A stretch of DNA of 64,000 nucleotides from Candidatus Magasanikiibacteriota bacterium. GTDB lineage: Bacteria; Patescibacteriota; Patescibacteriia; Magasanikbacterales; GWA2-37-8. Under the pieces are notes generated by a model, which saw nothing but the letters and a program-made list of their open reading frames with translations, was not told where the DNA came from and made no database searches. Location: positions 183,480 to 247,479 of the forward strand of contig CAWDHY010000002.1 in assembly GCA_963802255.1 (NCBI GenBank). The letters run 5' to 3'. How positions within the stretch are numbered: the stretch's first letter is position 1; each line of letters begins with the position of its first letter. This document shows, in pieces, positions 1-64,000 of the stretch. The position numbers and the translations under genes are program-made.

Positions 1-195
1 TTTCAATTTATCGGCCTGCGGATGCTTCTCCGCTTTCAGCACTTTTCCAACAACAACATTTTCCAGCAGTTCATCCTGCCGTATCATCCCTTCAACTTCA
101 ACCGTGGCCATTTTCAATTTTTCAGCAACTTCTTCAGCTGAAACTGAATCCGGCAAATTTACATACTGTTTCAACCAATTATATGAGAGTTTCAT
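1..195 (-). CDS. pheT: phenylalanine--tRNA ligase beta subunit, N-terminal fragment (continues beyond window start)
   Basis: Minus-strand ATG at 193-195 translates to MKLSYNWLKQYVNLPDSVSAEEVAEKLKMATVEVEG..., a classic PheT N-terminus; lies 1 nt downstream of the pheS stop. Confidence 0.7.
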   Translation of the reverse strand, partial: MKLSYNWLKQYVNLPDSVSAEEVAEKLKMATVEVEGMIRQDELLENVVVGKVLKAEKHPQADKLK

Positions 196-196
196 A

Positions 197-1258
197 CTAG
201 AACTGTTTAATAAATCTCAAATCCCCGCTTTCTAAAACACGGGTATCTTCAATGCCGTATTTAAGCATTACCAAACGGCTTAAGCCAAAACCAAAAGCAA
301 AACCTTGAAATTTTTCAGGATCAATTTCACCCTCTTTTAGCACATGCGGATGAATCATGCCGGCGCCGAATATTTCCATCCAGCCTGTATTTTTACACAC
401 CCGGCATCCTTTTCCATTGCACAAAAAACAAGTCACTTCGCCATTTACGCCCGGCTCGACAAACGGATAAAATTTTGGCCGCAGTCTCACTTTTGTTTCC
501 GGTCCATACAACTGTTTCGCTACTGCCTCAAGCACGCCCTTCATGTGAGCCATAGTAATATCTTTATTAATCACCAAACCTTCCAATTGGTAAAAAGTAT
601 GTTCATGCCGCGCGTCAGTCGCTTCATTCCGGTAACATTTACCCGGCATTATTACCCTTAACGGCACTCCATATTTTTGCATTGAACGTACTTGGAGCGA
701 TGATGTATGCGTTCGCATCACCCAATCAGGGTGGTCTTTAATATAAAAAGTGTCCTGTAAATCGCGGGCAGGATGCTCAGCCGGAATATTTATTGAAGAA
801 AAATTAAAATAGTCGCTCTCAAGTTCCGGACCGTCGGCAATAATAAATCCCATTGAAGAAAAAAATTCTTCCAGTTCTTTTTGCACAATCGAAGACGGAT
901 GCAAATGCCCCCGTTCACTTCTGGGAAGAACCGGCGCGGTCAGGTCAATTTTTTCAACGGCTAAGCTATTCGCCCAATCTTCTTCGCTCAGCTCATAATT
1001 TTTCTCAACAACGGCTTTTTCCACTTCTTGTTTTACTTCATTGGCCAGATGACCAATAATCTTTTTTTCTTCAGCCGATAAATCTTTGATGCTTTTCATC
1101 ATCTCGGTCAGCACACCGGATTTTCTGCCAAGATACTCATTTTCAATATCACGCAAAGAAGACCTGTCTTTTGCGGAACGGATTGCTTCAAGCGCTGTTT
1201 GCTTAATTTTTAAAATTTTGTCGTTCATATTTACCCGGCTAATAAAGAAGTGAATCAA
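197..1258 (-). CDS. pheS: phenylalanine--tRNA ligase alpha subunit (probable true start at MNDKIL, coordinate 1228)
   Basis: Class II aaRS motifs (FRNEATDARHEHTFYQLEG, GFAFGFGLSRL) and the C-terminal zinc-ribbon-like CxxC..CxxC; the ORF-track start overlaps the rseP stop. Confidence 0.9.
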   Translation of the reverse strand: MIHFFISRVNMNDKILKIKQTALEAIRSAKDRSSLRDIENEYLGRKSGVLTEMMKSIKDLSAEEKKIIGHLANEVKQEVEKAVVEKNYELSEEDWANSLAVEKIDLTAPVLPRSERGHLHPSSIVQKELEEFFSSMGFIIADGPELESDYFNFSSINIPAEHPARDLQDTFYIKDHPDWVMRTHTSSLQVRSMQKYGVPLRVIMPGKCYRNEATDARHEHTFYQLEGLVINKDITMAHMKGVLEAVAKQLYGPETKVRLRPKFYPFVEPGVNGEVTCFLCNGKGCRVCKNTGWMEIFGAGMIHPHVLKEGEIDPEKFQGFAFGFGLSRLVMLKYGIEDTRVLESGDLRFIKQF

Positions 1259-4197: not shown

Positions 4198-4228
4198 GTA
4201 TAGAAATCAAAAGAAACTCAAAAAACAA

Positions 4229-4249
4229 GAGCCGCTCCGAGAGCGGCTC
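4229..4249. terminator. GC hairpin gagccgctc/gagcggctc between convergent htpX and the 4281-4508 gene
   Basis: Near-perfect inverted repeat between two converging transcription units; no strong T-tract. Confidence 0.45.
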
Positions 4250-4280
4250 ATAAGCTTAAAGAACAAATCCTTCTTGCATC

Positions 4281-4508
4281 TCATTTTCTCGATGAAATTT
4301 CATCCACCAGCCGGCGCTCTTCGGGGTTCAGCACCACTTCTTCTTGTTCGTGGCTAAAATCGTCTTCGAGCAAAAACTGCACTGCTTCCGGATGCCACGA
4401 ATCCCTAGCGCCTTCAACTCCTCCCCTTCTGCGGCTTCTCCCGCCATCTGACGAGATGCCGTCAAATCTTGGTTGGTAGAGATCCTCGCTTCTCGCCCTC
4501 TTTCTCAT
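4281..4508 (-). CDS. small Arg-rich hypothetical protein (75 aa) encoded in a GC-rich island
   Basis: ORF preceded by a strong SD (aaggagggaaaATG) and a TTGACA-N17-TAAAAT promoter at 4552-4580; local GC well above the genome background. Confidence 0.45.
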   Translation of the reverse strand: MRKRARSEDLYQPRFDGISSDGGRSRRRGGVEGARDSWHPEAVQFLLEDDFSHEQEEVVLNPEERRLVDEISSRK

Positions 4509-4551
4509 TTTCCCTCCTTTTTCCCCAATTCATTTTGGGAGTGAAAAAATA

Positions 4552-4580
4552 ATTTTATCATAAATACATAAATATGTCAA
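4552..4580 (-). promoter_or_regulatory. sigma70-type promoter (TTGACA N17 TAAAAT) for the GC-rich small gene
   Basis: Consensus -35 with 17-nt spacer and an AT-rich -10 on the minus strand. Confidence 0.5.
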
Positions 4581-14668: not shown

Positions 14669-14683
14669 ACATAAAAAAACAAA

Positions 14684-14717
14684 GCCGCCTTGGAATAAAT
14701 CCTTGGCGGCATTTTTT
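14684..14717. terminator. intrinsic terminator (gccgcc...ggcggc hairpin plus T-tract), usable by radA (+) and the convergent GC-rich gene (-)
   Basis: GC stem flanked by an A-tract upstream and TTTTTT downstream. Confidence 0.6.
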
Positions 14718-14744
14718 ATAAGAGGTTTTGGGAAGTTTTGTGGA

Positions 14745-15183
14745 TCAGTCGGCTGGAGTGGCGTGGTTTTCCGTGTCTGGCGTGAAGTCATCGACCTCGA
14801 TGCACGGATGCTTTATGACCATCAAGGCCAGGTCGTGCTTGAAAGAGTCAATGCCCGGAACGATGTGGTGGAAATCCGGCGATAAGTCGCGCTTCTTTTT
14901 GTTGCGCAACTGCAAAGCTTGGCACTCATATATCGCCTCCAGGTCGCTCAGTCTGCGAAAGACGATCCGCTCGAGTTCCACCTGCATGTCACGGCCGTTG
15001 CGTCCTGCCCTACCAAACGCCAAAACCGTTTTGCCGTTGAGCTTGAGCGGAGTGCAGCGCACCCACAGTGGTCTCATGTCTTGCCCGCCTTTGTGTTGCA
15101 CCATTGCAACCACAAAGTCATTCCCCGCAGGATCGAAAGCGTTCTCCTTTGGCGGTAAACCCGCCCATACTTGTCTGCCCATT
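14745..15183 (-). CDS. hypothetical protein (about 146 aa) in a GC-rich island; likely start MGRQVWAGL
   Basis: Strong SD (aaaggaggagagaagaATG) and promoter TTGACG N17 TATTCT at 15261-15289; the antisense plus-strand ORF is Ser-rich low complexity and was rejected. Confidence 0.5.
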
Positions 15184-15200
15184 CTTCTCTCCTCCTTTAA

Positions 15201-15212
15201 ATGAACGTTCAT
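15201..15212. promoter_or_regulatory. perfect 12-bp palindrome ATGAACGTTCAT between promoter and SD of the GC-rich gene (candidate operator)
   Basis: Self-complementary dodecamer in the 5-prime UTR. Confidence 0.3.
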
Positions 15213-15260
15213 GCTCCTGTCAGTGCAGTACATCCGCACCGACTTGAAAGCACAAAGGAG

Positions 15261-15289
15261 AGAATAGCATAAAAAAACATCGTCGTCAA
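15261..15289 (-). promoter_or_regulatory. sigma70-type promoter TTGACG N17 TATTCT
   Basis: Hexamers with 17-nt spacer on the minus strand, overlapping the 3-prime end of recG. Confidence 0.45.
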
Positions 15290-39430: not shown

Positions 39431-39433
39431 TAA

Positions 39434-40347: not shown

Positions 40348-40379
40348 AATCGTATTATGTGAGCGAATGGAAATGTAAT

Positions 40380-40751: not shown

Positions 40752-40778
40752 ACAATTTTCTGATTACGCAAAGAGTAA

Positions 40779-41039: not shown

Positions 41040-41051
41040 ATAATATATTGA

Positions 41052-41672: not shown

Positions 41673-41684
41673 ATCTGTCGGTTT

Positions 41685-42383: not shown

Positions 42384-42419
42384 ATTTATGAATTATTTTC
42401 TGGTAATATGCGTGCAAAC

Positions 42420-42821: not shown

Positions 42822-42831
42822 ATTGTTATTA

Positions 42832-43167
42832 TTATTTCTTTTTTTCCGCCTTCGCCGCCGGAGCCGGAGCACCAGTTGCCGCCGTCTTGCTCTCCTGATC
42901 CTTAGCCATTTTGCCTCCGTGTCTCACGAATTTACGGGTTGAAGAAAATTCTCCAAGCCGGTGGCCGACCATATTTTCATCTACATATACGCTGATAAAA
43001 TCTTTTCCATTATGAACAAGAAATGTCATGCTGACCATCTCCGGTGAGATAACACAAGCACGCGACCAGGTTTTAATCGGCGATTTTTTTCCGCTTGCCT
43101 TCATTGCCAAAACTTTACTTAAAACTCTCGGATCAATATAAGGGCCTTTTTTCAAACTTCTGGACAT
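42832..43167 (-). CDS. rpsS: 30S ribosomal protein S19 with Ala/Lys-rich C-terminal tail
   Basis: [12 protein letters not shown]...[11 protein letters not shown] signature. Confidence 0.9.
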
Positions 43168-43183
43168 ATATTATAGTATGCGC

Positions 43184-44023
43184 TTACTTTTTACGGCGCG
43201 ACTTAATAATAAACTTATTACTCCATTTCTTGTTTCCGCGAGTGCGCACTCCCTGCGCCGTTTTTCCATAAACAGTCTGCGGGCCTCTCTTCTGACCAAT
43301 TGGCGAATGGCCTTCACCGCCCCCATGTGGATGGTCAACCGGATTCATATTTTTACCTTTAACAGTCGGTTTAATACCGCGATGGCGCATTCGTCCGGCT
43401 TTGCCCCAGCGTATCAGTCTGCGGTCCGCGTTTCCAAGCGCTCCAATTGAGGCGGCGCACTGCTTTCGCACTAAACGAATCTCGCCTGATGGTAGTTTTA
43501 TCTGGGCATATTCACCCTCAACACCTACCAGCTGAGCGCTGAGACCTGCTCCGCGAACCAGCTGTCCGCCTTTCCCGGCGGTTAATTCAATATTATGTAT
43601 AAATAAACCAATCGGCATGTGTTCAAGCGGTATTCTTACTCCCGGCTTCGCTTCAATCGCCTGATCCGAGGAAATAACCTTATCGCCCACCTTTAAACCT
43701 TCGGGACATAAAATATATGATTTTACTCCATCATTATACTGAATCAATGCGATCCTCGGACCGCGATTCGGATCATATTCAATTGCCAGAACTTCCGCTT
43801 CAACATTAAATTTTTGCTGTTTAAAATCAACCAACCGGTATAATTTTTTTGCTCCGCCTGATTTGTGGCGGACCGTGATTTTTCCCTGATTATTGCGACC
43901 GGATTTTGGCTTCAAAATTGTCACCAATGATTTTTCCGGTTCAAATTTTGTAAGATCGGAAAAAGCGTCGACACTTGAATTGCGGCGTCCCGGCGATGTT
44001 GGTTTGTAAACTTTAATTGGCAT
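43184..44023 (-). CDS. rplB: 50S ribosomal protein L2
   Basis: 279 aa, GGGEGHSPIG motif. Confidence 0.9.
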   Translation of the reverse strand: MPIKVYKPTSPGRRNSSVDAFSDLTKFEPEKSLVTILKPKSGRNNQGKITVRHKSGGAKKLYRLVDFKQQKFNVEAEVLAIEYDPNRGPRIALIQYNDGVKSYILCPEGLKVGDKVISSDQAIEAKPGVRIPLEHMPIGLFIHNIELTAGKGGQLVRGAGLSAQLVGVEGEYAQIKLPSGEIRLVRKQCAASIGALGNADRRLIRWGKAGRMRHRGIKPTVKGKNMNPVDHPHGGGEGHSPIGQKRGPQTVYGKTAQGVRTRGNKKWSNKFIIKSRRKK

Positions 44024-44044
44024 ATTCTTTTTTCAATACTCTTT

Positions 44045-44432
44045 TTACACGCCCTCGTGGATGGCGATGGTTTTGCCTTTTGGCAATGTAACAAACGCTT
44101 TTTTAAAATCTCCGCGGCGACCGGTATATTTTCCGTATCGACGCGCTTTGCCTTCCATGTGAATAACGTTTACTGATGCCGGCATTACTCCATAGATATC
44201 ATTTACAGCTTTCTTAATCTGTTCTTTTGTTGCATCACGACGCACTACAAAGGCATATTTGTTTAAGCTCTGCGCGACAGCCGCCTTTTCAGTTACCAAA
44301 GGTCTGATTATAACCTGGCTGGAAACAACCTTTGTCGCAGAGCTCTTTTTTATTTCAACTGGAGCTCTCAATCTTCTCAGCCTGAACAGCCGGTTTGTCT
44401 TCCTTAGTTTTCTTACGGTTAAGTAATCCCAT
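44045..44432 (-). CDS. rplW: 50S ribosomal protein L23 with apparent +1 frameshift near 44358-44372 (or alternative TTG start at 44371)
   Basis: ATG 14 nt after the rplD stop gives a Lys-rich MGLLNRKKTKEDKPAVQAEKIESSS then a stop; the L23 body (VVSSQVIIRPLVTEKA...) continues in the +1 frame. Confidence 0.7.
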
Positions 44433-44444
44433 ATATCTATGCAA

Positions 44445-45080
44445 TTAAGCCTTTTTTGATAATATATTTTCCAATTCCGCAATGCCGGATTTACTCGTTA
44501 TTATCGCCTGTTTGTTTAATACGGCTACTACGCTCGCATCGCGGGCTGAAATAGATTCAATCTTTTTCAAATTTTTTGTCATGCGGTAAACCTGCCCGTC
44601 CGCCTCGCCGGTTAAGATCAAGAATGACTTTTGTTCGATCGGCATTTTTTTCATAAAAGACGCAAAGATTTTTGTTTTCGGTTCGGCAAAATCAAAATTT
44701 TCCAACACCCACAAAGCGCCTGACTGGGCTTTATCGCTTAAACACATCTTTAGCGCGACACGTCGGGTTTTCTTATTGATTTTACTCTTATAATTGCGTG
44801 TGGAAAGTGGGCCAAAAGTCACGCCTCCGCCTACCCAAATCGGTGAACGGATAGAACCATGACGCGCCCTGCCTGTACCTTTCTGTCGCCAAGGTTTTTT
44901 ACCGCCGCCCCGCACTTCTCCTTTAGTCTTTGTGTCAGCCCACGGTTCACGGCTATTATTCATTTGAGCGACAAAAACTTCATGCACGACTTCCGGTTTA
45001 ATTTTCACGTCAAAAATCTTATCGTCTAAATTCATCTCTGACGATTCCTTGCCTTCTAAATTGTATACTTTAATTTTCAT
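44445..45080 (-). CDS. rplD: 50S ribosomal protein L4
   Basis: 211 aa, operon position. Confidence 0.9.
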   Translation of the reverse strand: MKIKVYNLEGKESSEMNLDDKIFDVKIKPEVVHEVFVAQMNNSREPWADTKTKGEVRGGGKKPWRQKGTGRARHGSIRSPIWVGGGVTFGPLSTRNYKSKINKKTRRVALKMCLSDKAQSGALWVLENFDFAEPKTKIFASFMKKMPIEQKSFLILTGEADGQVYRMTKNLKKIESISARDASVVAVLNKQAIITSKSGIAELENILSKKA

Positions 45081-45086
45081 ATATGA

Positions 45087-45806
45087 TTATGAAATGCTTT
45101 CCGGCACGGCTTCTGTCTGAGTCTCCGGCGCTACCATTTCCACTGCCGGCTCTTCTACCGGTTTAACTTCTTCTGCTATGGTAATAATCAATTCACCCGG
45201 ACAAGATATTTTTAAAATTCCATTTCTGGCACCTGGAACTGCACCCTTGATATAAAGTTCATTGGTTTCCGGATGTACTTCCATAATTTCCAGATTCTTT
45301 ACAGTTACCGGGGCACCGCCCATTCTTCCGGCCATTCGCATGCCTTTGAACACCCGCTGTACGCCACCCGCGCCGATTGAACCTGGGGCTCGCAAATCAT
45401 GCTTGTGGCCGTGCGTAGCCGGAGCACCTCGGAAATGATGCCGTTTAACAACACCGGCAAAACCTTTTCCTTTTGAGACACCCTCTACAGTAACGACATC
45501 ACCGGCTGAAAATACGGCCGCTGTAATTGTTGTTCCGCGATCAATACCCTCAATCTTATCTACAGTAAACGAACGCAATTCTCTGACCGGGGACAAACCT
45601 TTCAAATGACCTGCGCGAGGTTTATTTAAACGAAAATCCTTTGTTTCTCCAAAACCAATCTCAACTGACTGGGCATTATTTTTGTCCGTATTTTTAACTT
45701 GTACGACCTGACACGGTCCGGCTTGCACCCGGGTAACCGGAATCATTTCGCCCCCTGACGAAAATACTTGTGTCATGCCAATTTTTTTTCCTATTATAAA
45801 CTTCAT
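45087..45806 (-). CDS. rplC: 50S ribosomal protein L3 (start MKFIIGKKIGMTQVF)
   Basis: L3 N-terminal signature. Confidence 0.9.
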   Translation of the reverse strand: MKFIIGKKIGMTQVFSSGGEMIPVTRVQAGPCQVVQVKNTDKNNAQSVEIGFGETKDFRLNKPRAGHLKGLSPVRELRSFTVDKIEGIDRGTTITAAVFSAGDVVTVEGVSKGKGFAGVVKRHHFRGAPATHGHKHDLRAPGSIGAGGVQRVFKGMRMAGRMGGAPVTVKNLEIMEVHPETNELYIKGAVPGARNGILKISCPGELIITIAEEVKPVEEPAVEMVAPETQTEAVPESIS

Positions 45807-45865
45807 ATAATTCGCGTCATTGCTCCGCACCCATCCCATTTAGGCGGAGATAACCTGTTAATTTA

Positions 45866-45918
45866 ACAAAAAACTAGAAGCAATAACATTGAAATAAATT
45901 CAATTCTATTGCTTCTAG
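45866..45918 (-). terminator. long hairpin (12-bp perfect stem ctagaagcaata / tattgcttctag with nested palindromic loop) plus T-tract on the minus strand, between rpsJ and rplC
   Basis: On the rpsJ to rplC transcript direction the stem-loop is followed by TTTTTTG; sits in an unusual 300-nt rpsJ-rplC spacer. Confidence 0.5.
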
Positions 45919-46153
45919 CCATGAACAATCCGTCAAAAAACTGCGGATTAAAATGGCCTTTTTACTTGATTTTTCAATATTTATCTCCTTGTCGCTAAAA
46001 CTCGTTTAAATGTTTTTCATCCGCCTTGGGCGAAGAATCTTATTTACTTGAGTTTTTTCAACAAATTACTATGTGGCGATTTTACTAGAAATATTCTATC
46101 CTGTCAAGCCCCGACGGGAGCGACTACCGGCTCTACGCAAGGCAAACCAGTAT

Positions 46154-46495
46154 TTACATCTTAATCTCAATATCCACGCCAGAAGGCAAGCTCAAACTCA
46201 TAAGAGCATCCACGCATTTTGGCGAAGCGTTCATAATGTCAATCAAACGCTTGTGTACGCGCATTTCAAATTGCTCACGTGCATCCTTATGCACGAAAGT
46301 TGAGCGATTAACTGTAAATTTGCTTTTTTCCGTAGGAAGCGGTACTGGCCCGATTACTTTTGCATCATTTCTTTCCGCGGTTTCAATAATCATCCTAGTT
46401 GCCTGATCAATAATCTTGTTATCATACGCGCGAATTTTGATGCGAATTCTGGTTGCTTCAACCGCTTTCTTTACTGTCGCTGTTGCTGAAGTCAT
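46154..46495 (-). CDS. rpsJ: 30S ribosomal protein S10
   Basis: Conserved S10 core [16 protein letters not shown]... Confidence 0.9.
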
Positions 46496-46521
46496 GGTAA
46501 AGAACGTTATTCCACGACAAA

Positions 46522-46544
46522 GGGGGGTGATAATTTCACCCCCC
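46522..46544. promoter_or_regulatory. very stable hairpin ggggggtga-taatt-tcacccccc between tuf and rpsJ
   Basis: Perfect 9-bp stem with six G-C pairs in the 59-nt tuf-rpsJ spacer; no T-tract. Confidence 0.35.
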
Positions 46545-46554
46545 TCGTCAGGAT

Positions 46555-47745
46555 TTATTTAATAATTTTTGTTACCACGCCAGCGCCGACGGTTCTGCCG
46601 CCTTCGCGGATGGCGAATTTCATTTTTTCTTCAATGGCTACCGGTTTAATCAACTTCACGTTGAAATTGATAGTGTCACCCGGCATAACCATTTCTGTTC
46701 CTTCCGGCAAAATAACTTCACCGGTAACATCGGTAGTTCTGATATAGAACTGCGGTTTATAACCTTTGAAGAATGGTTTGTGCCGACCGCCTTCTTCTTT
46801 GGTCAACACAACGACCTGGGCCTCAAATTCAGTATGAGGATTGATAGTGCCCGGTTTGGCCAAAACCATACCGCGCTCTACTTCTTCTTTCTTGGTACCG
46901 CGAAGTAAAATGCCTGCGTTATCACCGGCCTGACCTTCTTTCAAGCTCTTATTAAACATTTCAATGCCGGTAACAACTGATTTCATTTTTTCTTCATTCA
47001 AGCCAACGATTTCAATTTCATCGTTGACATGAATAATACCGCGCTCAACGCGTCCGGTAACCACCGTTCCTCTACCTTCAATAGAAAAGACATCTTCTAC
47101 TGGCATAAGGAAAGGCTGGTCAACAGCGCGAACAGGTTCCGGGATATATTCATCAACAACTTTCATCAACTCCATAATCGGCTTAGTGGCCGCTTCATCG
47201 GTCGGATTCTGCAAAGCTTGCAGAGCTGAACCGCGGATAATCGGAGTGGTGTCGCCCGGAAAATCGTATTTTTTTAGTAAGTCGCGAATTTCCGCTTCAA
47301 CTAAATCAATCAGTTCCGGATCAGAAACTTGATCAACTTTATTTAAGAATACAACGATGTGCGGTACGCCCACTTGTCGGGCAAGCACAATGTGCTCCCG
47401 AGTCTGCGGCATCGGTCCGTCAGCAGCGGAAACAACTAAAATCGCGCCGTCCATTTGAGCCGCGCCGGTAATCATGTTCTTCACATAATCGGCATGACCG
47501 GGACAATCTACGTGCGCGTAGTGTCTCTTTTCCGTTTCATACTCAACATGGGCGGTGGAAATGGTAATGCCTCGAGCTTTTGACTCTGGCGCTTTATCCA
47601 AATCATCAACGCCTTTTGTTTGCGCGGTCATACCGCGCGCGCTTAAAACCGCCAAAATAGCAGCGGTAAGAGTTGTCTTACCGTGGTCAACATGGCCAAT
47701 AGTACCAATGTTGACATGTGGCTTGGTTCTTACAAACTCAGCCAT
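46555..47745 (-). CDS. tuf: elongation factor Tu
   Basis: [22 protein letters not shown] motifs. Confidence 0.95.
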
Positions 47746-47886
47746 ATGGTTCAATTTTTACGGCACTGCCGCCAAGTGGTTGGTGCAGATTTGTTAACCA
47801 GCCGCTTCACAAATATGTATATAAAATTAAATTGTTCAGATTCGGCACTAAAAACCTTAGAGCCGCCTGCTCCAATTTATTACGAG

Positions 47887-47914
47887 ATTATAGCAGATTT
47901 GAGGAATTTGGCAA
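47887..47914 (-). promoter_or_regulatory. tuf promoter TTGCCA N16 TGcTATAAT (extended -10)
   Basis: Minus-strand hexamers about 130 nt upstream of the tuf ATG. Confidence 0.5.
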
Positions 47915-47930
47915 GGGGGTGGATTGTGGA

Positions 47931-48467
47931 TTACTCAACCGGTTCCAAATAGAACCTTTCTTCTTCATGCGGAACAGTGGAAAGATTCTCTTCTTCTATC
48001 CATCCAACCCTTGGCTTGTCATCAAATTTTCTTTCCCGATACACTACGTCATTCAGCACATCGGCAACCCGGGGAATCATTGTCGCTTTTTTATCAGTCA
48101 CCAATTCTTTTTCTTCCACGGTTTTTTCCTTTTCATCTTCAGCAGTATCTTCAATTGTATTATTATCCTCCACCATATCATCCGCCTCCAATTCTTCCTC
48201 ATCCTTCTTTTGAAGACCTCGCCAATCAGCAATATCACGATTTATTTTTTCCAACATTTCCTGTTCCGATAAATCACTAATTTTTTGAAAATTATGATTT
48301 GGCAATTCTTCAGGGGTCCAATCAATTTGCCTCAACTGAGCCAAATTTTCATACTCGTCCAAAGACATTACAGCAAAGACCTCGTCTGATTCGCTATCTG
48401 CGATTACCAGTCTGTCTCCTGTTTCTCTTATTAAATTGAATAGGCGTTTTAATTGTTTTGAATTCAT
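47931..48467 (-). CDS. Phd/YefM antitoxin-like N-terminal domain fused to a long highly acidic C-terminal tail (178 aa)
   Basis: The N-terminus (RLVIADSESDEVFAVMSLDEYENLAQLRQ) resembles the Phd/YefM fold; the remainder is about 35% Asp/Glu; promoter-like TTGACA N16 TAACAT upstream. Confidence 0.45.
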   Translation of the reverse strand: MNSKQLKRLFNLIRETGDRLVIADSESDEVFAVMSLDEYENLAQLRQIDWTPEELPNHNFQKISDLSEQEMLEKINRDIADWRGLQKKDEEELEADDMVEDNNTIEDTAEDEKEKTVEEKELVTDKKATMIPRVADVLNDVVYRERKFDDKPRVGWIEEENLSTVPHEEERFYLEPVE

Positions 48468-48525
48468 AAAAAATATTGTATTGATGAGTGCCGTTATGTT
48501 ATCAATTTTTCAAGAAATGTCAAAC

Positions 48526-48564
48526 AGAAAAGAAAAACCCCTGTGCTTTGAAGAAACACAGGGG
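48526..48564 (-). terminator. intrinsic terminator for the coiled-coil gene (cccctgtg...cacagggg plus T-tract on the minus strand)
   Basis: Perfect 8-bp GC stem followed on the minus strand by TTTTTCTTTTCTGTTT. Confidence 0.65.
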
Positions 48565-48589
48565 CAAAATGTTTGAAGAAAAACTTTGG

Positions 48590-49828
48590 CTAGCTTGAGG
48601 GGGAATGTTGCTTGAGGGTGGACATGGCCGCCGCGATCTCGTCCTGTAGGGTCGTTTGCAAAGCCTCTTTCGCTTTGGCCATCCTGTTCCTGGCCTCAAC
48701 GATCGCCTTCTGCATGGCAGCGGTTTCCATATCACACTCGGCCACGACGGCCAGCTTTTCATCCTGCTTTTGTTTCAGAATGGACCGACGGGAAGAGAGG
48801 TCTGCGAAGAGACTGGAAAGCTCGGACTCGACGCTCCTGATGTCCTGCATGACTTTGGCATGCGATACGCGCAAGCCCGCGAGCTCCTTGCTTTTGTCAA
48901 CCAGGTCTTCGCGCACAGTCGCCAGCTCTCGCGTCTCGTAGGTCAGCCTGGAAATCACTCCCCGAAGCAGGTCGTTCACCAGCTGCCTCGCCACGATCAC
49001 CGCGTTGTTCTCGTTGACCTCATCGGCCATTACTGCAAGCGACTCGTTGTCGGGGAAAATGATACCCACTTCGGAAAGAGCCTGACTGATCAGGCGGCTG
49101 TCGCGCAAACGACCGCCTTCGGTCGCCGAATTGGCGACTACGATTCTTTCTTCGGCTGACTCCATCTGACGGAAAGCCGCCGCTTCTGCCGCTTCTGCTT
49201 CGCGCAGACGCGTTTCGGCTTGCTCTCTCCGCGCGGAAGCCGCCTCGAATTTCTCTTGAGAGAGAATCTCGGTCGCAATCGCGTCACGCTCGGCGTTTTC
49301 AATATCCGCCTTCAATTGGTCAATCTGATGATAGACTTCTTCGAGCTCGATACGCTTCTGTCCGATGGCCTGATGGCCCTGCATGATCTTGTTGGCCAGC
49401 ATGTCCAATTCCTGAACACGCTTGTCCATTTCTTCGAGCGCTTTCTCACGGCTTCTTTTGGAAGTCGATCCGGCCATCAGCCGTTCAACGGTTTCCTGAA
49501 GCGCCACGAACTCTTCCGATTCCTTGCCGATCTTGAGGATGAAAGCGACATACGAACAGACCTGGGGTGGCTTTACCAGCCGGACGTTCTTGGCGATGAA
49601 TTGCCGAATAACCCATATCGCATCATCTTTTTCCACCCGTTCGGGCTGAAAAATATGCGCGAACACCTCACAAAGGTTGTGCTCGAATTCCTTGTTGACA
49701 CTGCGTAGGAGGCCTAGCAAGCGGTCGGCGTCATCGTTCGTGGGCGGTCTGGGCATCTGAGCGAAGAGCATTACCAGCAAGCTGATAATCTCGTCTTTTG
49801 AGTACTCCGTTTCCCTGTTTTTTGCCAT
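48590..49828 (-). CDS. GC-rich (about 53-57% GC) 412-aa protein: about 110-aa N-terminal globular region followed by an about 300-aa coiled coil
   Basis: Single long ORF across the GC-rich island; SD aaagggtga 5 nt before the ATG; heptad-like E/A/R/L-rich sequence. Confidence 0.6.
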   Translation of the reverse strand: MAKNRETEYSKDEIISLLVMLFAQMPRPPTNDDADRLLGLLRSVNKEFEHNLCEVFAHIFQPERVEKDDAIWVIRQFIAKNVRLVKPPQVCSYVAFILKIGKESEEFVALQETVERLMAGSTSKRSREKALEEMDKRVQELDMLANKIMQGHQAIGQKRIELEEVYHQIDQLKADIENAERDAIATEILSQEKFEAASARREQAETRLREAEAAEAAAFRQMESAEERIVVANSATEGGRLRDSRLISQALSEVGIIFPDNESLAVMADEVNENNAVIVARQLVNDLLRGVISRLTYETRELATVREDLVDKSKELAGLRVSHAKVMQDIRSVESELSSLFADLSSRRSILKQKQDEKLAVVAECDMETAAMQKAIVEARNRMAKAKEALQTTLQDEIAAAMSTLKQHSPSS

Positions 49829-49898
49829 TGATTCACCCTTTCCGCAAGTTTTTCTTGCTTTGTTAAAAGATCATTTTCAGCCCTTTGCCGAACGCCTA

Positions 49899-49927
49899 AC
49901 CCTAACACAGCTGTGAATCATTGTCAA
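49899..49927 (-). promoter_or_regulatory. candidate promoter TTGACA N17 TAGGGT for the coiled-coil gene
   Basis: Good -35, weak -10. Confidence 0.3.
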
Positions 49928-49988
49928 TATCACAAAATCATATAGATAAAAAATGTAATAAATAGCTAACCTTAGCCAAATAACAAGG

Positions 49989-50017
49989 TTGACAAAAGTG
50001 CAAAAATGTGCTATAAT
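49989..50017 (+). promoter_or_regulatory. consensus sigma70 promoter TTGACA N17 TGcTATAAT
   Basis: Perfect hexamers with extended -10, 27 nt upstream of the 50045 ORF. Confidence 0.65.
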
Positions 50018-50044
50018 ATATATTGTCTTTAAATAATATTTAAT

Positions 50045-50443
50045 ATGCCAACACCTGAAAAAGGCGGCCATGACTGGTCAAATTGGAAGGCGAAAAAATC
50101 TGACACAACAGGACTAGATTTAGAACAGCAGGTTGCCAGAGCGACTGATGCAGCTGTTGTTGAAGGAGCGGAAGCTATTTTCCAAGATAACATCACCACC
50201 CGTAGCAGTATAGGCAGAAAAGAAATTTTAGATTACGATCCGAACGAAGAGGGAATCGCAATGCCGGACGAAAAAGCCATAAATATTAAAACAAAAACTT
50301 TTAAAGAAATACAAAATGAAAATATCAGCAATCTAAAACACAATGTTGATATGAGCGGAGCTGTGGAGCTTGGGGCGACCGGCACTGATGATGAACCATT
50401 TGAAATTGAACATGACCCGCAAATATATAAACAAGCGGGCTGA
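50045..50443 (+). CDS. hypothetical acidic protein (132 aa)
   Basis: ORF directly downstream of the consensus promoter; native AT-rich composition. Confidence 0.45.
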   Translation: MPTPEKGGHDWSNWKAKKSDTTGLDLEQQVARATDAAVVEGAEAIFQDNITTRSSIGRKEILDYDPNEEGIAMPDEKAINIKTKTFKEIQNENISNLKHNVDMSGAVELGATGTDDEPFEIEHDPQIYKQAG

Positions 50444-50471
50444 TAAATTAATAATTAATTTTAAAAATAAT

Positions 50472-50711
50472 ATGGAAAAAGAAAATTCTTTTTATAGTGG
50501 CAGTATGGAGGAAACAGGTGCTCATTTAATTGATATCCGAGAGTTTAGTCAATGGGACCCAATTCAAGAAATGCAAGAACAAATAAACCATGAAATTGAT
50601 GAAAATTTGGAAAAAGAGGCGCAATTGAGAGAATACAAAGAAGATAAAGCCAGATCAAAAAAATTATGGGAAGAAATAATGGCGAAAATCAAAAATGAAA
50701 AAGAAATCTAA
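50472..50711 (+). CDS. hypothetical small acidic protein (about 79 aa; start MEKENSFYSG)
   Basis: ORF-track 50370 start overlaps the previous gene in another frame; an internal ATG gives a non-overlapping gene. Confidence 0.35.
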   Translation: MEKENSFYSGSMEETGAHLIDIREFSQWDPIQEMQEQINHEIDENLEKEAQLREYKEDKARSKKLWEEIMAKIKNEKEI

Positions 50712-50756
50712 ATAGAGAAAATACCAGTTTGATAAAGCCATATAAAAACTAGAATT

Positions 50757-50785
50757 AAAAGAACCCCCGTTTCGGGGGTTCTTTT
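50757..50785. terminator. bidirectional intrinsic terminator gaacccccg-tttc-gggggttc with flanking A/T tracts
   Basis: Perfect stem; serves fusA (-) and the small ORFs (+). Confidence 0.75.
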
Positions 50786-50796
50786 AATATATCCGA

Positions 50797-52872
50797 TTAT
50801 TTCTTTTTACCCTCAATAATTTGTTGCGCTACATTGTTCGGCACATCGGCATAATGTGAAAATTCCATTGTTGAGCTCGCTCTGCCTTGCGTCATATTGC
50901 GCAAGGAAGTGACATAACCGAACATGCTCGCAAGCGGCACTTTGGCTTTCACCACTTTCATCTGTCCGCGGTCAAACATTTCTTCCACTTGGCCGCGTTT
51001 TGAATTTAAGTCGCCAATAACATCACCCATAAACTGTTCCGGGGTCAAAACTTCAACCTTCATCACCGGCTCCATAATCACCGGGTTGGCTTTTTTACAA
51101 GCCGTCTGGAAGGCCATTGAACCGGACATTTTAAAGGCAGCTTCAGACGAATCAACCTCATGATACGAACCGTCATAGCACGTCACCTTCACATCCACCA
51201 CCGGATAACCAGCCTGAACACCGCGAGTCAGAGATTCTTTTACACCCTTTTCCACTGCCGGAATATATTCACGGGGAATCACGCCACCCTTAATTTCATC
51301 AACAAACTCAAAACCCTTGCCCGATTCCTGCGGTTCAACACGCAACCAGCAATGACCATATTGACCGCGGCCTCCGGACTGCTTAACATATTTACCTTCA
51401 GCTTCGGCCGAGGTGCGGATGGTTTCTTTATACGCGACTTGTGGATTGCCGACATTGGCTTCCACTTTAAATTCGCGCTTCATGCGGTCCACAATAATGT
51501 CCAAATGCAATTCGCCCATGCCGGAAATAATTGTTTGCAGTGTCTCTTCATCGGTATGCACTTTAAATGTCGGGTCTTCTTCAGCCAACTTTTGCATGGC
51601 CATACCGATTTTTTCCTGATCGGCTTTCGTCTTCGGTTCAATAGCAATTGAGATGACCGGTTCAGGAAAAGTAATTTTCTCCAAAATTATCTGATGATTT
51701 TCATCGCAGAGAGTATCGCCGGTCACGGTCGCCTTCAAGCCAATGGCCGCGGCGATTTCACCGGCGAAGACTTCATCCACGTCTTCACGGTGATTGGCGT
51801 GCATGCGGACAATTCGTCCGATGCGTTCCTTCTCACAGCTGGTGGAATTATATATATATGAACCGGCGCTGACCTTGCCTGAATATACGCGGAAGAAAAT
51901 TAAACGGCCGACGAACGGATCGGTGGCAACTTTAAAAGCCAAAGCGGAAAAATGTTCATCATCATCAGCGCGCCTGGTAATTTCAGCGTTTGTGTCCGGA
52001 TCAATCCCCTGAATCGGAGGCAAATCAGTTGGAGCCGGCAAATACCAAACTACAGCATCAAGCATCAACTGTACGCCCATATTTGAAAGAGCCGAACCGC
52101 ACATTACCGGAAAGATATCTCCGCGCAAAATCATCTCACGGATGTTGTTTTTTATTTCATCAACAGATAATGTTTCGCCGTTCAAAAAATGATTCATCGT
52201 TTCATCATTTGCTTCAGCCACTTTTTCTAACATGATATTGCGAAATTTCTGAACTTTTTCCGTCAGGTCATCAGGAATAGAAATTTCCGTTACATTTTCG
52301 CCATTCTTACCTTCAAATTGAAACGCTTTATTTTCAATCAAATCAATAATGCCGGTATAGGATCCCTCTGCCCCAATCGGTAGCTGGATGGCTATGGCAT
52401 TTTTTGATAATCGTTCCTGAATGGAATCCAGACTCATATAAAAATCAGCTCCCATTTTGTCCATCTTATTGATGAAGGCAATACGCGGAACATCATATTT
52501 GTCAGCCTGATGCCAGACTGTTTCCGATTGCGGTTCCACGCCCTGTGAGCCGTCAAATACAGCCACAGCGCCATCAAGCACGCGCAAAGAGCGCTCCACC
52601 TCCACGGTAAAGTCAACATGGCCGGGAGTATCAATCAAATTTATACGGTGACCCTTCCAAAAACAGGTAGTCGCGGCTGAAGTAATAGTAATACCGCGCT
52701 CTCTTTCCTGCTCCATCCAATCCATCTCTGCCGCACCTTCGTGTACTTCACCGATTTTATGTTTTTTTCCGGTGTAAAAAAGCACGCGCTCGGAGATAGT
52801 GGTTTTACCGGCATCAATGTGGGCCATAATGCCGATATTTCTTGTCTTATCCAATGGATATTCACGAGGCAT
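50797..52872 (-). CDS. fusA: elongation factor G (start [25 protein letters not shown])
   Basis: GTPase motifs [21 protein letters not shown]; five-domain length. Confidence 0.95.
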
Positions 52873-52888
52873 ATATATGTGATTAATT

Positions 52889-53365
52889 TTATTTTGCGAA
52901 TCTTGCAAAGTGAGCGAAGGCCTTGTTGGCTTCAGCCATACGATGTACATCATCGCGCTTTTTTATGGCATCACCTAATCCTTGCGACGCTTCATTTAAT
53001 ACAGTAGCAAGCTTCTCCAGCATCGGCTGGCCTTTTTTGGCGCGTGCCGCATCAATAATCCAGCGGAAGGCAAGCGCGTTCTGTCGTTCGCCGCGCACCG
53101 GCAACGGCACCTGATAGTTGGCGCCACCGACGCGTTTGGAACGGACTTCCACTTGCGGGGCGACAGTGCGGATTGCTTCTTCAAAAATTTTCACCGCGTC
53201 CTTCTTGGTTTCCGCGGAGATTTTATCCAAAGCACCATAAACGATAGCTTGTGCAGTTGATTTTTTACCGCCAAGCATTACATAATTGATAAATTTTCCG
53301 AGCAAAGCGTTGCCGTATTTTGCATCCGGCTGTGGCAGTCGCTTTGGGGCTTTTTTTCCACGCAT
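52889..53365 (-). CDS. rpsG: 30S ribosomal protein S7
   Basis: 158 aa, S7 signature. Confidence 0.9.
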
Positions 53366-53386
53366 AGTATTATATGTTATGTATCA

Positions 53387-53816
53387 TTACGCTTTCTTCG
53401 CTTTCGGACGCTTGGTGCCGTAGACGCTTCGACCGCGTCGGCGCGATTCAATTCCTTGGGTATCATAAACACCGCGCACAATGTGATAGCGCACGCCCGG
53501 AAGATCTTTTACACGACCACCGCGCAAAAGCACAATTGAGTGCTCTTGAAGGTTGTGTCCTTCACCCGGAATATAGGCGATTACTTCCATGCCATTTACT
53601 CAAACGGACTTTGGCGACTTTACGAAGAGCCGAGTTCGGTTTTTTTGGAGTGGTGGTGTACACCTTGGTGCACACTCCGCGTTTAAAAGCCGAACCCTTA
53701 CTGAGCACGGTTTTCTTGCGGTGCAGATTATCGGTCATGAACTGCAAAGCCGGGGTCTTTGATTTGGTGACCTTGTCTTTACGGCCATGGCGCAACACTT
53801 GATTGATTGTTGGCAT
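53387..53816 (-). CDS. rpsL: 30S ribosomal protein S12, interrupted by a single-base frameshift near 53595-53597
   Basis: N-terminal part ([13 protein letters not shown]...KVRLS) and C-terminal part ([20 protein letters not shown]...) lie in different frames; removing one A from an AAA run restores the consensus [14 protein letters not shown] junction. Confidence 0.8.
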
Positions 53817-54028
53817 AGATAAATTTAAATAAAAAAGCTGACCTTTGTAAAAATCAGCCACGATTTTAAGCTAAAGGTTGCTTCCGCTTTGGTTTAGATA
53901 GACCAAAACGAAGTTGACGTTCTAGAAACAGGATATATGACAGCAAAAGATTTGTCAAGTCCAGCCTGCCATTCCTTATATAATAATATTTACAAAAAAT
54001 AATCATTAAGCTATTATATAAAAAATAT

Positions 54029-58700: not shown

Positions 58701-59021
58701 TTATAATCCAGGGAATGGCGGGTCGCTATAATCCGGCTCGTCGCCATATTTGCGGTATGATTGAACCGCCTTTTCAAAACGAGGATAAGCACTCGCAACC
58801 GCAAAAATAATTATCCGCCTAAACAAAAAACCGATCACAAAAATAGAAGGCACAATGATGAAAGCAAAATATTTCGAACCAGCAACCTCCGCCGCCAAAA
58901 TAATACCGGCAATAAAGGAAATCGCAAAAAGTAAAAAAACACCCCACCTAATGAAAAAAAATTCGTAGAGACCGGCGAGCACATCAACGGCGTCACTGCA
59001 GGATTCTTCATCTTTTGACAT
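58701..59021 (-). CDS. hypothetical small membrane protein (two TM helices)
   Basis: Intact 106-aa ORF with two hydrophobic segments. Confidence 0.4.
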   Translation of the reverse strand: MSKDEESCSDAVDVLAGLYEFFFIRWGVFLLFAISFIAGIILAAEVAGSKYFAFIIVPSIFVIGFLFRRIIIFAVASAYPRFEKAVQSYRKYGDEPDYSDPPFPGL

Positions 59022-61821: not shown

Positions 61822-62796
61822 TTACTTCAGCTTCATCAATTTTTCTTCAGATAGAAGCTGTTTTATCAGCTCCGTCTGCTCCTGCATATATTTCGTTGCC
61901 TGCGCCATGTTCATGGGGTTGGGCACAAAGCCAGCGTCTGTTAATTTGGCCTGGACTTCCTTGTCGGTAACAACTGCATAGAACGCTTTGTCAAGCTTCT
62001 GTTTGATATCCTCCGGAAGATTCTTCGGCGCAATTATGCCACGGTCAATACGCGGATAAATCTTGTACCCCATTTCAGCGAATGTGGGAACATCCGGCAA
62101 TTGTTTCATCCGCTGTTCCGTGCCTACCGCAAGAATTTCCACCCCGCTTCCTTGCATTTCAACTGCAGCAGGTGAGTTTGTAAACGCCGCATCGACGTGT
62201 CCACCCATGATTTGCGGTTTTACCTGTCCGGTCCCCTGCAGCGGGATATACGTCAGTTGAATGCCGGCCAGCTTCATGAACTGGAGCACATTCAGATGTG
62301 GCCCTGAAAATTTTCCTACGGCGGATATCGTTATTTTCCCCGGGTTTTTCTTTGCGTAGTCGATAAATTCTGTCAGCGTCTTTGCCGGAAACCCTTTCTT
62401 CACAACGAGCGTTGCCGGGGTGTTCTCAATCATCGTAAGATATGTGAAATCCTCTGTCTTGTACTGAACATCCTCCATCGTAAGCGGCTGCGTGATAACA
62501 TGCGGCGAATTGAAGCCCGCAAGCGTATATCCATCCGCCTTTGCATTCGCCAGGGTCTGCCATGCGAGCGCACCACCGGCAGCCGGCTTATAATCCGGAG
62601 CAAAACGGACGCCGAGCGCCTTTTCAAAATACGGTTGCATGGCCCGGAATTCGATATCCGACTCGCCCCCGGGATTGAATGCGATGATGTACGAGATTTC
62701 TTTTGCCGGATACGTTTCGCCTGCTGCCTGGACTGCGGTTACTGAAAAAACAAGAACAACTGACAGGATGATGCTGACAAAATGTTTTCTTTTCAT
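61822..62796 (-). CDS. tctC: tripartite tricarboxylate transporter substrate-binding protein (TctC/Bug family), GC-rich
   Basis: Signal peptide, 324 aa periplasmic binding protein typical of the Bug family. Confidence 0.7.
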   Translation of the reverse strand: MKRKHFVSIILSVVLVFSVTAVQAAGETYPAKEISYIIAFNPGGESDIEFRAMQPYFEKALGVRFAPDYKPAAGGALAWQTLANAKADGYTLAGFNSPHVITQPLTMEDVQYKTEDFTYLTMIENTPATLVVKKGFPAKTLTEFIDYAKKNPGKITISAVGKFSGPHLNVLQFMKLAGIQLTYIPLQGTGQVKPQIMGGHVDAAFTNSPAAVEMQGSGVEILAVGTEQRMKQLPDVPTFAEMGYKIYPRIDRGIIAPKNLPEDIKQKLDKAFYAVVTDKEVQAKLTDAGFVPNPMNMAQATKYMQEQTELIKQLLSEEKLMKLK

Positions 62797-62844
62797 TGCG
62801 ACTCCTTTCTCTTTAAGGTGAGGTTATTAAGAGGTCCTAACGTT

Positions 62845-64000
62845 TCATACATCATCATCGCCGATCTTTTCCTTGAGCTTTGACCTTCTGTTGCGGATCG
62901 ACGGAAGCATTGTCGACATGATCAGCAGGGCAGACACAGTCATGAATGTTGCTGAAATCGGTTTTGTTAAAAAAACGCTCGCGTCGCCCTGATTGATCAG
63001 CAGCGAGAGGCGGAGATTGCTTTCCATCATCGGTCCAAGAACAAGGGCGAGAATGAGTGGCGCCATCTCGAACTTGAACTTTCGCATCAGGTATCCAAGA
63101 ACTCCGAATCCGATCATCAGGCCTATTTCGACCTGACTGAAGTTCAGGCTGTAGACGCCGATGAGGCAGAAGATAAGGATGAGCGGGAACAAAATTGAAT
63201 AGGGAATTTTCAAAACCTTTATCCAAATGGGGATTAAAGGCAGATTCAGTACGAGCAGCATGGCGTTGCCTAGATACATGCTTATGATCGTTCCCCAGAA
63301 AATATCCGGATATTTTGAAATGAACATGGGTCCCGGCTGTAACCCATGTACCATGAATGCACCGAGAAGAACAGCAATAACCGAATTTGCCGGAATACCG
63401 AGCGTAAAGAGCGGAATCATGGCGCCGCTGGAGGCCGCATTGTTCGCAGCCTCCGGACCCGCGACTCCGGCGATGAAGCCGGTCCCGAATCTTTCAGGGG
63501 TTTTTGAAAGTTTCTTCTCCAATGCATAGGATGCGTAGGTGGAAATAACCGGCGAAGGGCCCGGCAGCACGCCGATCAGAAAACCGAGCCCGCTTCCGCG
63601 CAATATCGGCATAATGGCGTCTTTCCAGTCCTGAAGATTCGGGAAAAGGTTCTTCACCTTTTCCGTAACAAGCGTTGTTGGGATAATCCGTTCCACGTTC
63701 ATCAGGATTTCTGAGATGCCGAAGAGCCCCATCACCGCGGGGATAAAGCCGATTCCGTCAGCTAGCTCAAGAACTCCGAACGTAAGCCGCTGCGTTCCTG
63801 CGATGGTATCCATGCCGATGGTGCCGAGCAGCAGACCAAACACGGCGGTCATAAAATCTTTTAGAATCGTACCGGACGACATGTAAATGATGATGACAAT
63901 ACCCATCAGCAGCATCGAAAAATATTCAGGCGGACCGAAGGCGAGCGCAAACTCCGCCATGGGAGGCGCCAGAAGCACTATACCGACAATGCCCAACGTG
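62845..64000 (-). CDS. tctA: tripartite tricarboxylate transporter permease TctA, C-terminal about 383 aa (gene continues beyond window end)
   Basis: Multi-TM permease with TctA-type sequence; GC-rich composition continuous with tctC. Confidence 0.7.
   Translation of the reverse strand, partial: TLGIVGIVLLAPPMAEFALAFGPPEYFSMLLMGIVIIIYMSSGTILKDFMTAVFGLLLGTIGMDTIAGTQRLTFGVLELADGIGFIPAVMGLFGISEILMNVERIIPTTLVTEKVKNLFPNLQDWKDAIMPILRGSGLGFLIGVLPGPSPVISTYASYALEKKLSKTPERFGTGFIAGVAGPEAANNAASSGAMIPLFTLGIPANSVIAVLLGAFMVHGLQPGPMFISKYPDIFWGTIISMYLGNAMLLVLNLPLIPIWIKVLKIPYSILFPLILIFCLIGVYSLNFSQVEIGLMIGFGVLGYLMRKFKFEMAPLILALVLGPMMESNLRLSLLINQGDASVFLTKPISATFMTVSALLIMSTMLPSIRNRRSKLKEKIGDDDV

Follow-up and report, generated by a model that had tools for sequence, protein, structure and literature searches.

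Shine-Dalgarno-led gene cassettes among Shine-Dalgarno-free genes in a Magasanikbacteria locus: a proposed second class of translation starts

Bacteria which make little use of the Shine-Dalgarno sequence (SD) are already known. The Bacteroidia, the closest known parallel to the case described here, have SD-blind ribosomes and A-rich 'Kozak-like' leaders (PMC6847099, PMC7797042, PMC9976891), and their single strongly SD-led gene, rpsU, is translated by a bS21-less subpopulation of ribosomes (PMC9976891, PMC7797042). It was this one gene that revealed the specialised ribosomes. The stretch analysed here, hereafter called the window, comprises 64,000 nucleotides from Candidatus Magasanikiibacteriota bacterium (assembly GCA_963802255.1, contig CAWDHY010000002.1, positions 183,480 to 247,479), a member of the uncultured Candidate Phyla Radiation (CPR). 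Its ordinary genes start without an SD, whereas five genes, namely those of the cassettes A, B and C, hyp106 and tctC, have an SD 4-8 nt from the AUG. The cassettes are thought, with a probability of roughly 0.6, to represent a maintained second initiation class, that is, SD-led autonomous units within an SD-independent CPR genome. The situation is comparable to that of the Bacteroidia in that the genome is nearly devoid of SDs, the leaders are A-rich and unstructured, and very few genes keep a strong conserved SD, implying a second mode of initiation. It is distinct in that the SD-led genes are not rpsU but orphan, autonomous cassettes with a high G+C content (GC) at third codon positions (GC3). 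Native genes of the Bacteroidia carry adenines at -3, -6 and -12, whereas the native signal here is a U at -1, present before 82-88 % of starts. SD-poor lineages in which a few genes are SD-led are a known theme, of which this is a new variation, and the finding hinges on the 3' end of the 16S rRNA. By analogy a comparable switch of ribosome state might be imagined for this clade, which would be speculation; bS21 is reported to be often absent in Parcubacteria (PMC9297842).

Within the same superphylum, Tsurumaki et al. 2022 reported a subgroup of the Parcubacteria without the anti-SD motif in the 16S rRNA (PMC9297842). The native genes of all 27 Magasanikbacteria loci compared here likewise make little use of the SD, but the conserved SDs suggest that the anti-SD has been kept in this lineage. 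The published work gives a property of the 16S rRNA, and SD-led exceptions, a U(-1) context and GC-rich cassettes are not described there (PMC9297842). In E. coli, pairing of U(-1) with A37 of the initiator tRNA, which extends the start codon-anticodon interaction to a quadruplet, modulates initiation modestly (PMC10018350 and references therein), whereas here nearly all native genes have U(-1) and none of the SD-led class does.

Two concepts from mobile DNA are also relevant. Phage morons, as conceived by Hendrix and Juhala, are single genes of deviant composition with their own promoter and terminator, located between conserved genes. The cassettes resemble them in the promoter-gene-terminator layout (the promoter of C and the terminator of B being recognised by eye), in their conserved neighbours, in their atypical composition and in their presence/absence polymorphism, but their place is the core chromosome of a bacterium, including the str/S10 ribosomal cluster, instead of a prophage; their surroundings contain no phage genes, and viral homologs were found for neither B nor C. 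With genomic islands they share deviant GC3 and codon usage, but they differ in having no mobility genes or flanking repeats, a conserved position, no identifiable donor and no amelioration at synonymous divergence (dS) above 1.

Two kinds of translation start

For each of 69 curated starts in the window, the preceding 20 nt were scored against the canonical anti-SD, which was assumed for this lineage. The ordinary genes, approximately 60 in number, had a median pairing energy (dG) of about 0 kcal/mol, and an SD core of at least 5 nt was found at the chosen start in none of them. The SD-less starts include those of radA, der, topA, lemA, htpX, clpC, rplB, rpsS, fusA and secY, and the minus-strand cluster of ribosomal protein genes, secY, tuf and fusA (33359..53861) served as the reference set. 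An earlier note made from the sequence of the window had claimed, from a small sample, that native starts lack an SD, and this was borne out. The native leaders are A/U-rich, with G at only 2-12 % from -16 to -1 in the upstream position matrix. T is found at -1 before 52 of 59 curated native starts (88 %), as in the leader ...aaccatATG of tuf at 47742. In the 27 loci, T at -1 preceded the first ATG in 294 of 359 open reading frames (ORFs) of at least 100 amino acids (82 %), compared with 20 % for all other ATGs. Native SD use was low in each of these loci, regardless of GC content (36-54 %), and the GC of the upstream regions was 0.18-0.33 in most of them, even with a background of 47-49 %. 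Very low SD usage with A-rich unstructured leaders, as in an SD-independent lineage of the Bacteroidia type, is thus also found here. An SD-free UAUG or U(-1) start context has not been described for this clade in the literature searched. The near-universal U(-1) of native genes and its absence from the SD-led class would mean that U(-1) substitutes for the SD, and the data suggest that it helps to replace the SD in native genes.

When the best candidate start within the first 45 codons of the ordinary genes was considered, only occasional internal chance motifs were seen, such as AGGAGG inside rplX. The strongest internal SD-like site of the window is AAGGAGG at 40287-40292 (minus strand), 5 nt before an in-frame GTG within rplX (uL24), and it is probably due to chance. 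An apparent SD of secY was rejected, as it belongs to a spurious upstream TTG.

The five SD-led genes match the canonical anti-SD, on the assumption of a canonical tail, with AAGGAGG at a spacing of 4 nt in cassette A (dG -12.3 kcal/mol), AAGGAGG at 8 nt in B (-11.7 kcal/mol), GAAAGGGTG (AAGGG) at 7 nt in C (-5.0 kcal/mol), AGGAGG at 5 nt in hyp106 (58701-59021, minus strand; -11.6 kcal/mol) and AAGGAG at 5 nt in tctC (-8.5 kcal/mol), so that all spacings are within the range of about 4-10 nt. The earlier note's observation of AGGAGG or AAGGG at good spacing before three GC-rich cassettes therefore holds, and it is extended by two more SD-led genes, one of which is not GC-rich. The base at -1 is A in all five. 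The difference in U(-1) between SD-led and native genes (0/5 and 52/59, respectively) has P ~1e-4 (hypergeometric, hand calculation), and the SD-led cassette orthologs read in other genomes carry an A, C or G there. With U(-1) absent from SD-led genes, the two sets of signals are mutually exclusive. By chance, an SD core of at least 6 nt occurs at proper spacing before 0.6 % of 1,900 non-start ATGs, which predicts about 0.4 such cores among the 69 starts, where 4 were observed. Over the whole window AGGAGG shows no enrichment (14 observed, 15.5 expected), nor is GGAGG over-represented, and it is thus the position of the motif which constitutes the signal.

The contrast in GC is found at synonymous sites. 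Native GC3 is 0.405 ± 0.04, whereas it is 0.53 in cassette A, 0.68 in both B and C, 0.56 in tctC and 0.62 in the neighbouring tctA. A comparison of codon adaptation, proposed in the earlier note, was run and the cassettes were found to deviate, with z-scores of -3.2 (A), -4.9 (B) and -5.7 (C). The preference among two-fold codons is inverted from native genes to cassettes, AAT for Asn falling from 0.69 to 0.10, AAA for Lys from 0.79 to 0.42 and GAA for Glu from 0.80 to 0.52. Among 452 mechanically called ORFs from the 27 loci, an SD core of at least 6 nt was present before 12 of 36 GC3 outliers (z of at least 3) and 10 of 416 others (odds ratio 20, P = 3.7e-9), although this P is optimistic since orthologous cassettes were counted in several genomes and are not independent. 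Two mildly GC3-rich ORFs of the window (29512-29889 and 61127-61774) have no SD. Structured start regions were considered as a reason for the SD and rejected, the folding energies of the cassettes from -30 to +30 being within approximately one standard deviation of those of native genes.

Structure and relatives of cassettes A, B and C

All three cassettes are encoded on the minus strand. Cassette B is an autonomous unit (14673..15289) between recG and radA, with an ORF of 145 amino acids (15182..14745). The unit has a -35 box TTGACG (15284-15289), a TG-extended -10 box TATTCT (15261-15266), nested hairpins in the 5' untranslated region (5' UTR; 15212-15252), the SD AGGAGG (15191-15196) and a terminator-like hairpin with a T-run (14673-14710), which was recognised by eye and missed by the scan. 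The 5' UTR hairpins covary among six orthologs (92 % of cells paired, 5 compensatory pairs, observed score reached in 0 of 500 shuffles) and, judged by this conservation, may be a cis-regulatory or autoregulatory element. The inner element, a 6-bp stem with an AUGNN loop, is kept even where the proteins are only about 30 % identical. A pairing of the SD with an upstream CU-rich stretch, given by RNAalifold, was not adopted as SD sequestration because this stretch overlaps the -10 box and is probably untranscribed.

Three close homologs of the B protein and, among 1.84 billion representatives, about ten remote ones (25-35 % identity) were found, all metagenomic, and every one with visible context is encoded between recG and radA. 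Orthologs at this junction are present in L002, L006, L007, L009, L011, L012, L013, L014 and L016. An SD core (GGAGG, GAGGAGG or AAGGAG) precedes all orthologs examined, over 25-84 % protein identity, and it is retained also where the UTRs are much less conserved than among close orthologs. GC3 of the orthologs is raised over the host median, from about level with it (L009) to 0.81 against 0.50 (L011). Cassette B has a ratio of nonsynonymous to synonymous divergence (dN/dS) of 0.09-0.19. Its dS to L002, L006 and L007 is about 0.8, compared with 2.2-5.0 for the flanking radA and recG. In L012, the genome closest to the window (radA 90 % and hyp408 88 % identical), the B allele (14919-15323) is only 44 % identical, whereas alleles of more distant genomes (radA 83-84 % identical) are 73-84 % identical, a pattern that points to alleles having been replaced, or to diversifying selection, at a fixed locus. 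The junction is empty in L023, L027 and L028, and in L017, L018 and L032 it holds unrelated small GC-rich SD-led ORFs. The structure model of B is confident (predicted local distance difference test, pLDDT, 81), and no structural neighbour was found for it. L012 has two extra GC-rich SD-led genes at 18151-20616 (minus strand), between recG and the homolog of hyp168, which encode a 608-amino-acid SPFH/Band-7 protein (GC3 0.82) and an orphan of 198 amino acids (GC3 0.74). These genes are absent from the window, where only tRNA-Arg stands at the site.

Cassette C (48530..49927), between fusA and tuf, encodes a coiled-coil protein of 412 amino acids (49828..48590). Upstream of the ORF are a -35 box TTGACA (49922-49927), a weak -10 box TAGGGT (49899-49904), a terminator-like hairpin in the 5' UTR followed by a U-rich tract (49876-49892), a GCAAG/CTTGC hairpin (49844-49858) which abuts the SD, and the SD-like GAAAGGG with its AAGGG at 49836-49840; a terminator is located at 48537-48565. 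The promoter is visible by eye and failed the consensus scan. Among 5.8 billion proteins exactly one homolog was found, with 63 % identity, from a Candidatus Magasanikbacteria metagenome-assembled genome (MAG), and no more were obtained from two scans of metagenomes, one using C and the other its neighbour hyp178. In that genome (L001) the arrangement fusA-x-C-x-tuf is identical, the 5' UTR is conserved, the SD is GGAAAGGA, and the gene has a GC of 0.61 and a GC3 of 0.79 in a background of 46 % GC. The dS between the two C genes is 1.2, equal to that of tuf and rplB (0.9-1.15), and dN/dS is 0.22. No amelioration is seen, as GC3 is 0.68 and 0.79 in hosts with a GC3 of 0.41-0.45. The stem of the terminator-like hairpin is changed on both sides in L001 (about 2440-2530), with pairing kept by eye, and this hairpin with its U-rich tract, as it appears in the sequence, is a possible attenuator. 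The GCAAG-AAAAA-CTTGC hairpin is perfectly conserved in L001. Two AT-rich orphan genes flank C and are conserved beside it in L001, one of 178 amino acids (47931-48467, minus strand) whose N-terminus weakly matches the Phd/YefM antitoxin family (E = 0.008), and one of 132 amino acids (50045-50443, plus strand) with a perfect TTGACA-17-TATAAT promoter (49989-50017).

Cassette A, also an autonomous unit (4220..4580), is located between htpX and hyp110, with htpX and pgm as neighbours, and encodes a small, highly charged protein of 75 amino acids (4508..4281, GC 0.526). A -35 box TTGACA (4575-4580), a 17-nt spacer and a TG-extended -10 box TAAAAT (4552-4557) agree with the promoter consensus at 11 of 12 positions. 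The SD AGGAGG is at 4513-4518, and an intrinsic terminator was detected by the scan at 4220-4249. No homolog was found in the databases, and the sole relatives are syntenic. SD-led small ORFs of the A family, with the common motifs VY.PR.DG and EPEL..EE, occupy the htpX|hyp110 gap in L012, L013 and L014; those of L013 and L014 are GC-rich, and the whole gap is GC-richer than the locus in all three. L016 has a variant in this gap, which in L015 is empty (76 nt). Sequence searches of Pfam, NCBIfam, PADLOC, PHROGs and PDB gave no families for A, B or C beyond weak coiled-coil noise, in the case of C matches to Baculo_p24 and LmuB.

Origin of the cassettes and role of the motif

In the proposed explanation, a first class of about 93 % of the genes, including all housekeeping genes, would be initiated without an SD, from a leader with 20 A/U-rich, G-depleted nucleotides and a U before the AUG, by means of the lack of structure and of U(-1), which would form a fourth base pair with A37 of the initiator tRNA. 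The second class would consist of a handful of autonomous moron-like cassettes, each with its own sigma-70-type promoter, of the pattern TTGAC(A/G)-N17-TG-extended -10, and its own terminator. Their leaders would combine a conserved structured 5' UTR with a canonical SD 4-9 nt from the AUG and no U at -1, and their ORFs, at fixed intergenic sites, would use G/C-ending codons and encode clade-restricted orphan proteins. The SD would be functional, the anti-SD hence still present on the ribosome of the lineage, and the cassettes a separately controllable class of translation. Their composition would be actively maintained, by selection or by continued exchange of alleles within the clade, and would not be the fading trace of an import. 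Purifying selection on B and C, together with the conservation of their SDs, also speaks for their expression and against the idea of passengers with poor translation. An extension of this, and a rather doubtful one, is that two orthogonal initiation codes exist, with a U(-1), A/U-rich, SD-free core and a conserved set of GC3-rich orphan SD cassettes, shuffled laterally and switched globally by the availability of the 16S tail or by a ribosome subpopulation. The cassette regulon might then be turned on or off, for example, at host attachment, under stress or during phage attack, and the GC-rich bodies with rare codons and the structured 5' UTRs would belong to the same control.

The earlier note had taken the cassettes for foreign, and this claim was upheld only in part. 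They are outliers in composition and codon usage, and mobility within the clade is plausible, but a recent import finds no support, as they occupy the same sites in diverged relatives and no donor is detectable. Recent acquisition from a GC-rich, SD-using donor, with genes as yet unameliorated and perhaps poorly translated, would account for a GC3 of 0.53-0.68 against the native 0.405, codon-adaptation z-scores of -3 to -6, SD use amid an SD-less background and the sites which are empty in some relatives. Atypical composition is, however, the only mark of a recent island that was found. B and C are present at the same loci in relatives and A is absent only in L015, the remote B homologs are still between recG and radA, and purifying selection acts on both B and C. 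All three cassettes encode orphan families restricted to the Magasanikbacteria clade, found at the same intergenic sites in diverged genomes. Protein sets of 5.8 billion and 1.84 billion gave no homologs outside the clade, IMG/VR gave no relatives of B and C, and no phage families were detected for the cassette proteins and the neighbours of C. The cassette borders show no integrase genes, target-site duplications, terminal repeats or convincing direct or inverted repeats. Synonymous sites of the flanking genes are saturated between the window and its relatives, so that a neutral import would already have ameliorated; since no amelioration is seen, the cassettes appear to be long-term residents whose SD and codon composition are maintained. 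For B and C the recent-foreign reading is thus largely refuted, and overall it is considered very improbable. It is harder to set aside the view that accessory or selfish genes circulate among Magasanikbacteria, by homologous replacement at fixed 'cassette sites' or on an unseen GC-rich, SD-using phage or plasmid, and that the SD and GC signature is that of the mobile pool and not of chromosomal selection. The low dS of B relative to its flanks, the divergent B allele of L012, the polymorphism of A (absent in L015) and B (absent in L023, L027 and L028), the unrelated ORFs in the recG|radA gap of L017, L018 and L032 and the extra genes beside recG in L012 all fit it, and from the incongruence of B and the empty sites it does seem that cassettes are passed laterally between members of the clade, at fixed sites. 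Against this, no vector was found in viral scans for B and C or with PHROG and PADLOC, the dS of C equals that of its flanks, as in vertical descent, stronger constraint on codons or RNA could account for part of the low dS of B, and the promoter type is the same as that of native genes. Circulation of this kind is considered unlikely. Stitching of GC-rich fragments of another organism into a CPR contig, by assembly or binning, has next to no probability; the GC switches are abrupt and several related MAG records are mislabelled 'uncultured Gammaproteobacteria', but the same gene order and cassettes are present in independent assemblies from different samples (Logan, ENA, JGI, NCBI) and the cassette promoters share the native consensus.

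A further reading is that the purine-rich motif is not an SD. An anti-SD motif was detected in only 48 % of Parcubacteria (PMC9297842), and the anti-SD may have been lost here too, GGAGG then being a UTR element for another factor or a by-product of GC or purine content; the conservation of the whole 5' UTR of B and C beyond the SD would fit this, as would the internal GGAGG motifs, which are not depleted in the window. This is, all the same, improbable, as the motif is found 4-9 nt before the AUG in cassettes which are unrelated to one another, as are their UTRs (A, B, C, hyp106, tctC), before the SPFH-domain (Band 7) gene of L012 and before the ORFs in L017, L018 and L032, it is kept in B orthologs with poorly conserved UTRs, and its chance rate is 0.6 % per ATG. 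Conservation beyond the neutral expectation was found in the B orthologs, in the A family of L012, L013 and L014 and in the C ortholog, and conserved SDs at canonical spacing in unrelated cassettes would mean that the ribosome keeps a usable anti-SD. No gene for 16S rRNA, rpsU, rpsR or rpsF was found within the window or the related loci examined, and the 16S 3' motif did not occur in the 33 sequences scanned. Several points weigh against a maintained second class. The function of the motif as an SD is inferred from sequence, in a group of which about half is reported to lack CCUCCU (PMC9297842). The SD of C is weak (dG -5.0, ortholog -7.0), and the C family has only two known members. The separation of SD and GC3 is imperfect, hyp106 being SD-led with normal GC, and the association across loci has, besides its optimistic P, starts which were called mechanically outside the window. 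The phylogeny of the B alleles is incongruent and they are younger than the flanking genes, and part of the apparent maintenance could be repeated lateral replacement instead of selection in place. If the two classes of start nevertheless hold genome-wide, the pattern would supply a sequence rule for better start-codon calling in such MAGs, the cassettes would be concrete candidates for genes under separate translational control, outliers in GC and codon usage would not necessarily be recent transfers, and the use of the anti-SD in Parcubacteria would become a directly testable question.

Other units and the surrounding window

The gene hyp106 (59021..58701, minus strand) encodes a predicted membrane protein of 106 amino acids, with a GC3 of 0.40, A at -1 and the SD AGGAGG at 59027-59032; no Pfam, PADLOC or PHROG match was found. 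The tct island (61822..63996, minus strand) contains GC-richer, SD-led transporter genes and runs off the end of the window. It includes tctC (61822-62796, minus strand; Pfam TctC, 1.9e-49), with its SD AAGGAG at 62802-62807, and a partial tctA (62845-63996, minus strand; Pfam TctA, 3.2e-112). A tripartite tricarboxylate transporter of the TctC/TctA type is, to our knowledge, unusual in a CPR genome, and tctC and tctA may truly have been acquired by horizontal transfer.

Between topA and relA, the intergenic stretch (25400-25950, minus strand) contains three units, each with a promoter-like site, a short transcript and a terminator. One of them, of about 210 nt and about 53 % GC (roughly 25805-25560), has a possible ORF of 45 amino acids after a weak AAGG. 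Rfam matches in 25300-26050 were all sub-threshold and terminator-driven. The GC-rich stretch could be a small RNA or a fourth mini-cassette.

The window has a GC of 42.6 % and contains three tRNAs, the str/S10/spc ribosomal cluster on the minus strand and the housekeeping genes pheS, rseP, lemA, htpX, pgm, clpC-like, radA, recG, an LCP-family gene, der, pth, dprA, topA, relA/spoT, parAB, recO, ruvX, uvrD, tgt and a class-I aminoacyl-tRNA synthetase gene. Absence of uL30 between uS5 and uL15 and an insertion in uS12 are among the CPR traits (PMC9297842). In the window, rpsE (37225-37773) adjoins rplO (36776-37216) with no uL30 in between, both ORFs being assigned by cluster order, and uS12 shows the CPR-type insertion. 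The rpsL (uS12) gene itself (53387-53861, minus strand) is read as two overlapping ORFs, 53861..53562 and 53590..53387, with a frameshift near 53590. Either this is an error of sequencing or assembly, or the frame of an essential gene is really shifted.

The nearest relatives of the window are Magasanikbacteria MAGs, and 21 Magasanikbacteria loci were recovered by a genome scan with a lineage-specific neighbour gene. The records titled 'uncultured Gammaproteobacteria bacterium' (L013, L018, L022, L024, L027, L028 and L030-L032) carry this Magasanikbacteria-specific gene, and the syntenic neighbourhood is present wherever the locus is long enough, so that the titles are evidently mislabelled. 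Several starts in related loci were mis-called by standard gene callers, which may misplace starts in an SD-less clade. In L001 the public call of the uL3 gene (6625-7308) begins at an internal ATG, and with the in-frame ATG upstream the protein reads MKFIIGKKIGMTQV, apparently the true N-terminus of uL3.

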